Of a DNA stretch of 64,000 bases, positions 11,556-61,333 are shown one piece after another (positions within the stretch are counted from its first letter, which is position 1; each line of letters starts with the position of its first letter). This stretch comes from an uncultured delta proteobacterium (GTDB lineage Bacteria > Desulfobacterota > Desulfomonilia > UBA1062). The notes beneath the pieces are model-generated. The model did not search any database, was not told the origin of the DNA, and worked only from the letters and a program-made list of their open reading frames with translations. The stretch lies in the NCBI GenBank assembly GCA_963752595.1, contig CAVVYZ010000005.1:288001-352000 (forward strand), given 5' to 3'. The position numbers were made by a program, and so were the translations under genes.

Positions 11556-11583
11556 TAAAATTTTCTTCTTCCGGGGCCGATAT
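11556..11583 (+). promoter_or_regulatory. Sigma-28/FliA-like promoter of the sigma-54 activator gene
   Basis: TAAA-N16-GCCGATAT, 100 nt before the GTG start. Confidence 0.55.
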
Positions 11584-11682
11584 ACGGTAAGAAGAGGCAG
11601 AGAGAGTATTACAGAGCCATGTAATCTGCCGTAATCCGTACATAAGGCATGGATGCGCTTCACATTGGAGGGGTGAGTTCAG

Positions 11683-13408
11683 GTGAAAGAGGCCAGGATC
11701 CTGATCATCGACGACGAAGAAGGTATCCGGAATACCTTCGGTGCATTCCTGGAGAAAGAGGGATATGCCGTTACAACCGCCCCGGATTACCAGGCAGCCG
11801 TTAATGCATTGGCAGCAAGCCCGGTTGACCTTGTGTACATGGATATCCTCCTCGGAGGTCCCCGTTCGGGCATCGAAATCCTCAAAGAGATGAAGGATCG
11901 AGGCTACCAATGCCCCGTGATCATGATCACCGGCGAGCCCAATATCGAAACCGCGGCAGCATCGGTGCGGCTGGGGGCCTTTGATTACATCCCAAAACCC
12001 ATCAAGCGGGAAGTCCTGGTCAGCACCACCAGGCATGCGCTCCGGCATAAGTCCCTCCTCGATGAAAAGCAGATCATCGAATCTCAGAAGGAGGAGTATC
12101 GCCTCCATCTCGAAGCCATTTTCAGAAGTGTTGAAGATGCCATTATCACCGTGGACACCGATTTGCGGATAACACAGGCGAATGAGGCCTTTGAAAAGAT
12201 ATGCGGCAGGAAGGCGCAGGATATCATCGGTGAACAGCCGGTGAAAATATGCAACAATTGCTGCAAGATGTGCTGCGAAGTTCTGAAAGAGTCTCTTGCT
12301 ACAAAACGCTCCATCCAGGAGTACCGGATCGAGTGCAAACGGTCCGACCGGTTCGAACAGGTCGTTGTGATCAGCATATCTCCCTTGAGAAACGCATCCG
12401 GCAGGCCTATCGGCGCAGTCATGGTCATGAGAGATATCACTCGCTTGTCCCACCTGGAGAAGCAGCTGCAGGACAGGCACCAGTTTCACAGTATCATCGG
12501 CAGGAGCCGGCAGATGCAGGGTATCTACGAACTCCTGGAAAATCTCAAAGACATCGACACCACGGTTCTTATTACCGGCCCCAGCGGCACCGGCAAAGAG
12601 CTCGTTGCCAAGGCAATCCATTTCAACGGGATGCGGGCGGCTCATCCCTTTGTTGTCGTGAACTGCTCCGCACTGGCTGAGAACCTCCTGGAGAGCGAGC
12701 TCTTCGGCCATGTGAAAGGGGCCTTTACCGGGGCGATCAAAGACAAGATCGGGCGATTCCACCTGGCGAATCACGGCACCATATTCCTCGACGAGATCGG
12801 GGATATCTCGCCGAAGACCCAGCTCAAACTGCTCCGGTTCCTTGAAAACAAGGAATTCGAAAGGGTCGGTGATTCAACGCCGATCAAGCTCGATGTGCAG
12901 GTAATCACGGCGACGAACAAGGACTTGAAGCACAAGGTCGAATCAGCTGAGTTCCGCGACGACCTCTACTACCGTCTCAAGGTCGTGGAGATAAAGCTTC
13001 CATCCCTTGCACAAAGGCGCGACGATATCCCTCCCCTGACGGGTCACTACGTAGAGGTGTTCAATAAGCGCTTCAACAAGCATATCATGGGGATATCCAA
13101 GGATGTAGAACGGATCTTCATGGAGTATCCCTGGCCCGGAAACATCAGGGAACTCATTCACACCCTCGAACATGCCTTCGTGGTCTGTAAAAATCACACC
13201 ATCGAGCCCGAGGACCTTCCTCCGGAATTCCGGGAACGCCTGATGCCCCAGAGCCCCTCACAAAAATCGGCATCATTGGAGAAAGACCGGATCATCCATG
13301 CTCTGAGCCAGACAGGATGGAACAAGGCAAAAAGCAGCCAGACTCCTTAAGGTGAGCCGTCAGACCATGTACCGCAAAATTGAGGAGTATGAGATACCTG
13401 TCCCTTGA
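11683..13408 (+). CDS. Sigma-54-dependent response regulator (REC-PAS-AAA+-Fis HTH), frameshift near 13333
   Basis: REC LIIDDE...MDI...[46 protein letters not shown]. Removing one A from an A-run restores [20 protein letters not shown], ending at TGA 13408. Confidence 0.9.
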
Positions 13409-13417
13409 GAGATGATG

Positions 13418-13465
13418 TGTAACATGTGACGCTTGTGTCTCTGTAACATCCCTTTTCCTGTTACA
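13418..13465. promoter_or_regulatory. Putative enhancer (UAS) sites for a sigma-54 activator
   Basis: TGTAACA at 13418 and 13442 and TGTTACA at 13459 (TGTAACA-N10-TGTTACA inverted repeat), 100-150 nt upstream of a -24/-12 element. Confidence 0.55.
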
Positions 13466-13566
13466 TGTTCCAGCCCGTACTTACTCGCCGAGAAAACCTG
13501 TCAGATATTTCTTAACAACTTATTAATAATCATTATATCAGGCATCCTCCCCAGCTTCTTAATCAC

Positions 13567-13582
13567 TGGCACGGGATTTGAC
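13567..13582 (+). promoter_or_regulatory. Sigma-54 -24/-12 promoter
   Basis: TGGCACGGGATTTGAC (TGGCAC-N5-TTGA, variant -12), preceded by an AT-rich IHF-like tract at 13503-13540. Confidence 0.6.
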
Positions 13583-13607
13583 ATCCTTGATAACCGGAGG
13601 GCGACAC

Positions 13608-14003
13608 ATGGTGAAACACCCAGGAAGAAAATTTGATGCCATGAGAAAAAAACCTGAAGTATTTCAGATCCGGACGGATACGATTTCCAGGTTCCTGGGT
13701 GAGGAAGATCATCCCCTTTTTATTGCAGCGCTACGGAAGGATGCGGATTACGCCAAAAATATCCGACAGCTGTCGGATGTGGCGGAAGAGTTCGAGAAAG
13801 AGGGCCTCATCGTATGTTATACCCTGGAAGACTTACTCCCCTATTTCACTATCCGCTTCGGTATTGGAGGCACTCCGACCTTTCTCATGATTGTCGGCGG
13901 AATAGTCCTCGGCACAATGCTCGGAAAGAATTCCAGTTCCTCACTCGTTCAATTTATCCGTGAGCATCTATGCGAATACAAAACCGGCGGAAAGACCGGT
14001 TAA
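13608..14003 (+). CDS. Thioredoxin-fold-like hypothetical protein lacking CxxC
   Basis: GGAGG RBS; C-terminal RFGIGGTPTFLMIVGG...MLG resembles the thioredoxin cis-Pro strand; no CxxC. Confidence 0.55.
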   Translation: MVKHPGRKFDAMRKKPEVFQIRTDTISRFLGEEDHPLFIAALRKDADYAKNIRQLSDVAEEFEKEGLIVCYTLEDLLPYFTIRFGIGGTPTFLMIVGGIVLGTMLGKNSSSSLVQFIREHLCEYKTGGKTG

Positions 14004-14092
14004 ATGATCGTGAAAAAGCTCAAGAAATGAGGACCACAAGACCAAGTAACGGGTGAAGAAATAGATTGCGGATTTAAAATTCTGTTGATTAT

Positions 14093-59555: not shown

Positions 59556-59628
59556 GAGCCAGTAGCTCAGCTGGTAGAGCATCGGACTTTTAATCCGGTG
59601 GTCGAGGGTTCGAACCCCTCCTGGCTCA
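59556..59628 (+). tRNA. tRNA-Lys(TTT)
   Basis: Acceptor GAGCCAG/CTGGCTC, D-arm GCTC/GAGC, anticodon loop CT-TTT-AA, TTCGAAC T-loop; CCA not encoded. Confidence 0.97.
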
Positions 59629-59634
59629 CTGTAG

Positions 59635-59709
59635 GTCCCCATCGTCTAGCTAGGCCCAGGACACCGGCCTTTCACGCCGGCAGCAGGGGTTCAAATCCCC
59701 TTGGGGACG
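59635..59709 (+). tRNA. tRNA-Glu(TTC)
   Basis: Acceptor GTCCCCA/TGGGGAC, anticodon stem CCGGC/GCCGG with loop CT-TTC-AC, TTCAAAT T-loop; CCA not encoded. Confidence 0.96.
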
Positions 59710-59717
59710 TTGAGGAG

Positions 59718-59751
59718 AAAGCCCTGGAGGTTATATCCTCCAGGGCTTTTA
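59718..59751. terminator. Bidirectional intrinsic terminator after the tRNA pair
   Basis: AAAGCCCTGGAGG-TTATAT-CCTCCAGGGCTTTT. Confidence 0.85.
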
Positions 59752-60702
59752 TTTGTTTCCCTGCTTGATGATGTCGGAGAAGAGATCCACCAGTTCCGGA
59801 TCGAGGACACTTCCTTTCATGGAAATGAGCATTTCCAGGGCCTTGTCCTTGTCATATGCCTTCCGATACGGCCGTTCGGTTGTCAAGGCATCATAAATAT
59901 CAGCGACCGCAACAATCCTTGCTTCCAAAGGTATCTCTCCGCTTCCCTTTAACCCCGAGGGGTATCCCTTCCCATCATATCGCTCGTGATGATAAAGGAT
60001 GATGTTCACGATCATTTCAGGAAGCCTTGCCTTCCTTGCTACATCTGCGCCCCACATGGGGTGGTTCCTCACAATATGGATCTCTGCATCATCGAGAGGC
60101 CCTTCATAATTCAGGATATTTTCGGAGACCCCTATCTTGCCGCAATCATGCAGCCAGCTCCCAAAGCGTATTGCCTTGAGATTCTTATCATCGAGGTTGA
60201 GTCTGCCGCCTATTGAAATAGCATGCTGCGCAACCCGCTCCGAATGACCTTTCGTGTAGGGATCTTTCAGTTCAAGGGCACGCACGAGAGAGAGCATGGC
60301 AGCATCATCGCCTTTGACAATCGATTTGATGAGCCTATAGCGTTTCAGGGCATCCATCACCAGCTCAACCAATTGAGTGTTTTCCCAAGGCTTTACAATA
60401 AACCTGAAAACCTCTACGCGGTTTATCGCATCTATCGCTGTTCCAAGATCTGCAAATCCGGTCATGAGGATCTTCACGGTATCGGGAGACATCACTTTAA
60501 CCCGGGAGAGCAACTCCAACCCCATCATTCCGGGCATATGGTGATCGGAGACGATCACTGCAATCTCGTGGCTCTTTACTTTTTCAAGGGCATCTTCTGC
60601 ATTTTTTGCCGTGAGTATCCGGATCTCGTGTTGTTCGAACACAGCTTCAGCGATGTCCAAAATATAATTCTCATCGTCAACAAAAAGCACATATTCATCC
60701 AT
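59749..60702 (-). CDS. REC-HD-GYP c-di-GMP phosphodiesterase response regulator
   Basis: REC FVDDE...SDHHMP...VKPW; KDPYTKGHSERV, HDCGK, HHERYDGKGYP, VADIYDALT. Confidence 0.93.
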   Translation of the reverse strand: MDEYVLFVDDENYILDIAEAVFEQHEIRILTAKNAEDALEKVKSHEIAVIVSDHHMPGMMGLELLSRVKVMSPDTVKILMTGFADLGTAIDAINRVEVFRFIVKPWENTQLVELVMDALKRYRLIKSIVKGDDAAMLSLVRALELKDPYTKGHSERVAQHAISIGGRLNLDDKNLKAIRFGSWLHDCGKIGVSENILNYEGPLDDAEIHIVRNHPMWGADVARKARLPEMIVNIILYHHERYDGKGYPSGLKGSGEIPLEARIVAVADIYDALTTERPYRKAYDKDKALEMLISMKGSVLDPELVDLFSDIIKQGNK

Positions 60703-60805
60703 TTGAGTATCTTTCTCGTCCAAACATCGGAAAATGTTTAACAGAATCTCTCTGTATGACAAAGAACGCGTGGATATGTCAAATGACTTATGGTAAAAGA
60801 TCAAT

Positions 60806-61156
60806 ATGCTTTCTTCTGGAGATGTGGTTGCCGTCTATTTCGATAATACTCCCTCAGTATATGCACGGATAGAAATGATCTCGTCTGATATTAAACCGCA
60901 CTGGTACCAGATCCGACTGCTTTTTCTGAGTTTTCCTCCTCAAGAGGCCACTTGGATTCTCAGGGAAGAATATCTGGAAGGCTCAGAGTTTACGATGAAA
61001 GACATACCTATTAAGATCATACCCTTGTCTAAACCGAGTACAGGCGAGACATCCGTTCAGAGCAAGCACCATGAGAAATCGAGTACCGGCAGCGTTTTAT
61101 CGTTTGTAGATTTTCGTAAGAAGAAGCAAGGGGAGGACCCGGAAGATACCTCGTAA
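60806..61156 (+). CDS. Hypothetical protein, 116 aa
   Basis: YARIE...WYQIRLLFL...TWILREEYLEGSEFTM; basic tail VLSFVDFRKKK. Confidence 0.7.
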   Translation: MLSSGDVVAVYFDNTPSVYARIEMISSDIKPHWYQIRLLFLSFPPQEATWILREEYLEGSEFTMKDIPIKIIPLSKPSTGETSVQSKHHEKSSTGSVLSFVDFRKKKQGEDPEDTS

Positions 61157-61305
61157 GATAAACTCTATTGCAACGATTCAACAATCTATTCTCTTTGCAC
61201 TTGGGTAATATCATGGAACCCTTTCTTCTGGTCTTCCAAGGTTATCTCGTCTCCTTATCACAAAGAGCGTTTTTTTCCGTTCTATCAAGGCTTGGAGACG
61301 ATCGT

Positions 61306-61333
61306 TAAAGTGGAGAATCTCATATGCCGATAG
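61306..61333 (+). promoter_or_regulatory. Sigma-28/FliA-like promoter of pilB-pilT
   Basis: TAAA-N16-GCCGATAG (TAAAG start), 19 nt before the pilB ATG. Confidence 0.6.

Follow-up and report, generated by a model that had tools for sequence, protein, structure and literature searches.

How a flagellar sigma factor might come to govern type IV pili is the question raised by a 64,000-nucleotide stretch of DNA (hereafter the window; assembly GCA_963752595.1, contig CAVVYZ010000005.1, positions 288,001 to 352,000) from an uncultured delta proteobacterium. Gram-negative bacteria usually keep the control of swimming separate from that of pilus-based life on surfaces, or set the two in opposition. 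In the window, the same bipartite motif stands before two type IV pilus operons (pilMNOPQ and pilB-pilT), genes of a chemosensory (che) cluster and a few other genes, and an earlier note on this DNA had ascribed it to a factor of the sigma-28 (FliA) family. From comparative sequence analysis of the host genome and its relatives, we consider it probable that the motif is the promoter of the single FliA of the host, which would directly transcribe the entire type IVa pilus system and thereby replace control through PilS/PilR and sigma-54. The host belongs to what is probably an uncultured family of the class Desulfomonilia, referred to below as the family.

A sigma-28-type promoter motif in the host genome

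Seven 28-nt strings of the form TAAA/TTAA/TCAA, 16 nt, NNCGAT(A/T/C)N lie on the forward strand of the window, each at the position and in the orientation described earlier (Table 1). Five of the six main sites carry G as the fifth base, and the weaker TCAA site before a hybrid kinase gene is likewise present. The TAAAG-like -35 and (G)CCGATA-like -10 boxes are those of a sigma-28 promoter. Genes were called throughout the host assembly, which is 84% complete and indel-rich, 2847 upstream regions were extracted, and a two-box matrix was trained, blind to gene function, on regions from outside the window. This matrix, which reads T[A/C/T]AAG ... CCGAT, scored at least 12.4 before eight of the 32 units of the window (the seven named sites and a weak eighth, divergent from pilB, that had escaped the earlier note) and at most 3.7 before the other 24, including the housekeeping units glgA, lysC, tsaE and pncA, correctly described before as free of the motif. 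Profile searches of the window proteins also bore out the gene labels given earlier.

In two-fold cross-validation, 58 of the 2847 regions scored at least 13 at 16-nt spacing (35/1736 and 23/1111). Ten dinucleotide shuffles per half gave means of 7.6 and 3.7 (ranges 4–11 and 1–6), so that the excess is about five-fold. The 16-nt spacing forms a peak with shoulders at 15 nt (24 regions) and 17 nt (29 regions), six other spacings giving 8–15, and in non-divergent regions sense matches outnumbered antisense ones by 34 to 9. The motif is a real promoter signal, strand-specific and spacing-bound, and the comparison with shuffled DNA that the earlier note had proposed places it above background. Signalling genes lead 28 of 92 boxed units versus 93 of 2197 others; for cyclic di-GMP (c-di-GMP)-type or HDOD domains the figures are 11 boxed and 22 other units.

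Boxes at pilus operons are conserved across the family

The box before the ftsB/DivIC-like gene and pilMNOPQ recurs at 24/24 family loci from 13 genera, always with the 16-nt spacer (N16). Its -35 positions are conserved at 83–100% and CCCGATA at 96–100%, the inner spacer columns at 38–79%. The box before pilB is present at all 21 family loci returned, again always N16. The sister family has FliA in 0 of 16 genomes, and no box was found there at six pilM loci or at nine pilB loci. Family-wide conservation, together with absence where FliA is absent, supports the predicted sigma-28 link to both operons, and the motif is indeed conserved at pilM and pilB orthologues, where the earlier note had suggested looking. 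Further boxes precede a fimU minor-pilin operon (score 15.6), MshEN-PilT and MshEN-PilB genes, and an operon with an sgmX-like and then an mglA-like gene. The pilM box overlaps the first in-frame ATG of the DivIC/FtsB-like gene, so the true start should lie further down. This gene (window 46015-46359) leads the pilM operon across the family, and a weak match to it occurs in one sister-family locus.

FliA, FlgM and flagellar genes of the host

The host encodes one FliA over the TIGR02479 cut-off (276 bits), in the gene order flhB-flhA-flhF-flhG-fliA-cheY-fliL, and FliA is single in each family genome. Its best solved-structure match is 6pfv; the gene context is nonetheless a flagellar operon with FlgM, which is itself over its cut-off. 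Hook, rod and MS-ring genes are also present, and flhA, part of the flagellar export apparatus, was found in the host and in 46 of 52 family genomes. All the genes whose presence was to be checked, fliA, flgM and flagellar genes, are thus there. The proposed rewiring of a flagellar sigma onto pili therefore stands in part: the link between FliA and pil genes is supported, but the host has flagellar genes, and its FliA would consequently serve flagella and pili both. A reading of the host as non-flagellated was rejected, as fliC alone is missing from an 84% assembly and true flagellin occurs in 17/24 family relatives. The genome further contains an rpoN-like gene and two short RpoH/RpoD-like sigma genes (C17:216560-217210 and C21:32572-33333).

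The matrix also matches upstream of flgL, fliS, cheY, cheZ, cheX, motA and the flgM operon (flgL, fliS and motA being named by sequence and context). In relatives, the fliC upstream region carries a box in 15 of 15 loci parsed (13 with a 15-nt spacer, N15, and two N16), two more flagellin loci not having been parsed. These matches to late flagellar genes tie the motif to FliA independently of pili. Spacer length does not divide the two systems. The N16 spacing is not peculiar to pili: flgL (13/13) and cheY (21/21 flagellated loci) use it too; a rule by which N16 marks pilus genes and N15 flagellar genes was rejected for this reason and because pilA is N15 (see below). Nor is a spacer one nucleotide longer than usual a novelty. 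FliA sites of Escherichia coli have a spacing one base shorter than here (PMC4183435), but the start-site-mapped FliA consensus of Bdellovibrio, TTAAG-N16-CCGATA, has the same distance (PMC3627812).

The major pilin and the missing PilS

The major pilin gene pilA lies outside the window (host C17:30345-30818). A variant box, T(C/A/T)AAGT...CCG(T/A)A, stands about 115–180 nt upstream in 20/20 orthologues, with a spacing of 15 nt in 18 and 16 nt in two; this count does not include the twenty-first locus of the search, a minor pilin. Leaving aside the ribosome site, no other element upstream of pilA is conserved as well as this box. A strict -24/-12 sigma-54 pattern was found in 0/21 pilin upstream regions, in which degenerate sites may remain. 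Among the pilA leaders of the host and its relatives, many also contain, downstream of the box and ahead of the ribosome site, a conserved inverted repeat, GGCTTAA...TTAAGCGAAT, which would be an RNA hairpin or a regulator site.

The PilS membrane domain (PF25323) scored over the cut-off in 0/52 family genomes, in 116/151 genomes of the phylum (G167 serving as positive control), in 2/2 sister-family genomes and in 90 of the 94 genomes with pilB from outside the family. This domain is thus the default of the phylum, where pilin is normally controlled by PilS/PilR and sigma-54.

A genus that has lost its flagella

The six family genomes in which flhA was not found comprise all four of the genus g9 (93–97% complete) and two that are 77 and 80% complete. 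Flagellin/FlgL was likewise found in 0/4 genomes of g9, and in one of them, G019, neither a hook nor a rod gene was found. In all four, fliA is intact, and ftsX and flhG stand on one contig without flhB-flhA-flhF between them. The dN/dS ratio within g9 is 0.014–0.017 for fliA, 0.03–0.04 for ctpA, 0.06–0.09 for cheY, about 0.09 for flhG and 0.17–0.22 for the fliL-like gene; fliA of g9 is under strong purifying selection. FliA of g9 is 79% identical to that of the host (77–85% for more distant flagellated genera), and CheY identity has dropped to 46–49%, versus 82–99%. A quick FliA tree places g9 beside flagellated genera with an ordinary branch length, from which it follows that the flagellar loss is secondary.

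The boxes at the pilus genes have stayed. They precede pilM and pilB in 4/4 genomes and pilA in the three in which the major pilin was found (scores 13.6–18.7), the pilA boxes having a near-canonical CCGATA; the cheY box is gone in all four. FlgM is kept in 4/4 as a 147-amino-acid (aa) protein, whose front part resembles a small open reading frame (ORF) preceding flgM in the host. It appears to be fused to that ORF and is diverged, at 26.9 bits against a Pfam cut-off of 25. The corresponding loci are L131:10151-10594 in G019 and C5:247034-247547 in the host, and in g9 the gene keeps its 15-nt box. As a side observation, one ORF of G019 (L132:8985-10643) joins the C-terminal domain of FliF to FliG and adjoins genes for a sigma-54 activator, a TPR protein and a FlbB/MotE-like protein; the same genome retains flhG, the diverged cheY and the fliL-like gene. 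Taken together, the conserved pil boxes, the failure to find PilS and the retention of box and sigma after flagellar loss suggest that FliA likely switches on pili directly.

pilB boxes in other families of the phylum

We scored 69 of 94 pilB upstream regions from outside the family (29 returned by the search and 40 picked across families). A score of at least 13.5 was reached in 12/42 FliA-bearing genomes from nine families, 11 of them at N16, versus 1/27 genomes without a FliA match; the antisense control gave 2/69. Three of the 12 boxes are as far as 458–575 nt upstream and probably fall within the gene before. Judged from these upstream regions, pilB seems to receive FliA input repeatedly in the phylum, and the counts suggest that such boxes may have been overlooked in several of its other families. 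The family of the host stands out by having a box at pilA, by the absence of a PilS match over the cut-off and by keeping the arrangement after flagellar loss. Two genomes of family f39, G141 and G206, have strong 16-nt boxes before pilB and carry two FliA copies each.

Chemosensory sites and other features of the window

The che cluster had been read as the chemosensory pathway of the pili. This is not upheld: CheY (22260-22628) and CheA are separate, CheA ends in a CheW-like domain, CheD is present, the orthologues are patchy and the boxes labile. A CheA-CheY fusion, a mark of pilus-linked clusters in PMC2577667, was not found in this cluster. The window CheR has orthologues in 13/24 relatives and none in the flagella-less G019. 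It is plausible that the che-side sites are labile FliA targets.

The gene called an orphan in the earlier note does have a box, and a recurrent one: a box-like match stands at -45 to -82 in 24/25 loci with upstream sequence (scores 9.7–19.0). The gene itself is no orphan, since it is family-wide and was not found in the sister family (Table 1). Its 92-aa product gave no Pfam or NCBIfam match, its atlas matches stayed below 0.9, and its 85 homologues, none of them named, are all close. The predicted model (pLDDT 74) is all-beta, with no Foldseek match at E <=0.001 and a best VIA Z of 3.7. Genes for tRNA-Lys(TTT) and tRNA-Glu(TTC) lie at 59556-59709, between this gene and the HD-GYP gene, whose own box recurs at the same position (about -49) in 11/18 relatives with scores of 8.8–14.1.

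Table 1. Promoter boxes and associated genes in the 64,000-nt window (scores are those of the two-box matrix)
Feature	Position	Strand	Remarks
Weaker box before PAS hybrid kinase	7586..7613	+	Score 12.4; box in 1/2 relatives
Sigma-28-type box before REC-PAS sigma-54 activator	11556..11583	+	Score 15.3; labile, box in 2/5 relatives
Sigma-54 activator, methyl-accepting chemotaxis protein (MCP), cheW, cheR, cheD, cheB, MCP-like, STAS, cheY, cheA (pieces)	11683..24784	+	Accessory chemosensory cluster
Sigma-28-type box before dCache MCP	14236..14263	+	Score 17.5; not conserved, 0/6 relatives
Sigma-28-type box before cheR	17326..17353	+	Score 16.2; labile, at least 12 in 3/14 orthologous loci
Sigma-28-type box, 16-nt spacer, before ftsB/DivIC-like gene and pilMNOPQ	45976..46003	+	Core, conserved
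ftsB/DivIC-like gene, pilM, pilN, pilO, pilP, pilQ	46015..50954	+	Pfam DivIC; NCBIfam pilM, pilQ; pilN/O/P by position
Sigma-28-type box before 92-aa family-specific gene	58772..58799	+	Conserved
92-aa all-beta (predicted) protein of no known family	58841..59119	+	24/24 family relatives, 0/16 sister-family genomes
REC-HD-GYP c-di-GMP phosphodiesterase gene	59749..60702	-	
Weak eighth box before REC-HD-GYP gene	60713..60740	-	Score 13.1
Sigma-28-type box before pilB-pilT-pilC	61306..61333	+	Core, conserved
pilB and pilT	61353..64000	+	Frameshifted pieces in this assembly; pilC just past the window edge

Frameshifted pieces make up the hybrid kinase (7680-10539), cheA (22651-24784), polX (36267-38027) and pilB/pilT (61353-64000) genes. 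The frameshifts are likely assembly errors, because pilB is intact in relatives. Between glgA and a HemN-like gene stands a member of the DnaA family (41552-42949) that passes the TIGR00362 cut-off, with neither dnaN nor gyrB adjoining. Elsewhere in the genome, strong boxes also precede an AMIN-amidase gene and a LysM protein gene, and a phosphofructokinase-family gene (C5:359740-361056) and a KamA-family aminomutase gene (C1:96607-97911) have boxes that are retained in the flagella-less genus too. Candidates for comEA and comF have upstream scores of 4.1 and 8.0; dprA, pilD and comM gave no match to short motifs in the gene set of this indel-rich assembly, where such a result is uninformative.

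Proposed mechanism and alternative explanations

In the reading that we favour, RNA polymerase with FliA would start transcription a few bases past CCGATA, and FliA would act as a broad sigma factor of the motile and surface lifestyle with roughly 50–100 target units. The regulon would span late flagellar genes, pili, chemotaxis and c-di-GMP turnover, with the pilus system as its conserved core. In flagellated members, pili and flagellin would come to be expressed together once FlgM is exported through the finished hook, by the established mechanism described in PMC13595943. In g9 the same sigma would be retained chiefly for the sake of pili and signalling, and the relief of FlgM would need another route. 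More speculatively, the difference between filament subunits (fliC and pilA, mostly N15) and machinery genes (N16) may tune promoter strength.

Chance, or mere conservation among close relatives, is a scarcely credible source of the motif. Some che-side sites are indeed not conserved, and AT-rich upstream DNA does give some matches in shuffles, but the boxes are invariant across 13 genera whose spacers vary, and the genomic excess comes with a bias in strand and spacing; a chance origin is refuted for the pilM and pilB boxes and is possible for the MCP and hybrid-kinase sites. It is very unlikely that another sigma (a short RpoH/RpoD-like paralogue or an ECF factor) reads the 16-nt sites and FliA the 15-nt flagellar ones only. 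Further sigma-70-type genes do exist in the genome, and the fliC, fliS and flgM-operon boxes are mostly N15 where those of pilM and pilB are always N16; however, both classes share the same box letters, N16 occurs at flgL and cheY and N15 at pilA, the mapped FliA sites of Bdellovibrio have the N16 spacing (PMC3627812), each family genome has one FliA, and the boxes vanish where FliA is absent. An explanation in which the FliA boxes are real but secondary also seems unlikely to us, if less so. A phylum-wide sigma of the motile phase would then add an extra promoter to pil genes, and another factor, for instance a regulator at the inverted repeat of the pilA leader, would mainly set pilin levels, PilSR not having been replaced. 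This would fit the pilB boxes of other families that keep PilS, the global attack-phase role of FliA in Bdellovibrio (PMC3627812), the off-consensus -10 of pilA and the inverted repeat found downstream of it in many orthologues. It fits poorly with the position of the box as the best conserved element upstream of pilA save the ribosome site, with the near-canonical CCGATA of the g9 pilA boxes and with the failure to find PilS in any family genome.

Several observations weigh against direct control by FliA in place of PilS/PilR. The relatives compared are not independent samples, and the flagellar loss in g9 is one evolutionary event, not four. The -10 of the pilA box is non-consensus (mostly CCGTA) in 17/20 orthologues, with moderate scores (8.0–17.3), and conservation is poor at three of the four che-side sites tested. 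Genome G104 (99% complete) has a pilB box scoring 13.5 and no FliA match at 1e-50, and G014 (77% complete) has a pilB box with FliA not found. In the 84%-complete host assembly fliC was not found, and the only Flagellin_N match, beside fliW, reads by its sequence as FlgL. Weak PilS matches below the cut-off occur in 6/52 family genomes, and the Pfam model could miss a PilS that has diverged. No PilR gene follows pilC in the host or in G019, but the sister-family locus likewise lacks one there, and no search specific to PilR was made. Finally, all 12 boxed genomes outside the family retain a PilS match; the link to pilB is thus, taken by itself, not unique, and it does not depend on the loss of PilS.

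If FliA does control the pili directly, both filaments would appear to share one sigma and one FlgM checkpoint, and the family would offer a natural series for the handover of a regulon between sigmas and for a flagellar sigma that outlives the flagellum. We offer with considerable reserve the further idea that FliA and the fused FlgM of g9 form a dedicated switch for pili and the surface lifestyle without flagellar export, FlgM being relieved in a way not described so far, possibly by means of the N-terminal part gained by fusion. The family would then record, in a Gram-negative lineage, the complete path from a flagellar to a pilus sigma, in which FliA boxes were gained at pil operons, PilS was lost and the flagellum was lost, in that order.

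Comparison with known systems

A literature search, with most subscription papers outside its reach, returned no report of FliA-driven type IVa pili in this phylum and none of FlgM kept without flagella. Geobacter sulfurreducens belongs to the same phylum and has a type IVa machine, and its pilA depends on PilR and sigma-54 (PMC2725144). In contrast, PilS was not found in the family studied here, and its pilA has a sigma-28-type box and no recognisable sigma-54 site. FliA of Bdellovibrio bacteriovorus resembles the present case in its N16 spacing and in a broad regulon beyond flagella, which includes the Tad/Flp operon Bd0470 (PMC3627812). There, however, the type IVa genes pilB/pilT/pilC and the fimbrial assembly genes Bd0863/Bd0864 are low in the attack phase and pilS/pilR are kept; in the attack-phase promoter table of that paper, the sole 'pil' row is TadC. 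In Synechocystis, as is proposed here, a group 3 sigma (SigF) drives the major pilin, pilA1, but SigF is distinct from sigma-28 and reads TAGGC/GGTAA (PMC2532724). Loss of RpoF in Acidithiobacillus raised one pil cluster and lowered a few pilus genes (PMC6543871).

Close parallels are found among Actinobacteria (PMC8325347, PMC13595943), where sigma-28 control of type IV pili is already published as a principle, a precedent that limits the surprise of our finding. In Actinoplanes missouriensis, FliA-family sigmas are described as driving flagellar and type IV pilus genes alike; there are four paralogues, tied to zoospore development, and FlgM is almost absent from actinobacterial clusters, whereas here one FliA is accompanied by FlgM. 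In Rubrobacter radiotolerans, sigma-28-family (WhiG) promoters stand, as here, before pil operons and genes for c-di-GMP enzymes, and the start sites of those in its type IV pilus cluster have been mapped. That organism is a Gram-positive actinobacterium in which control is exerted by RsiG and c-di-GMP rather than FlgM; in the family described here, by contrast, the sigma is encoded in a flagellar operon, FlgM is kept and the PilS that is the default of the phylum is missing.

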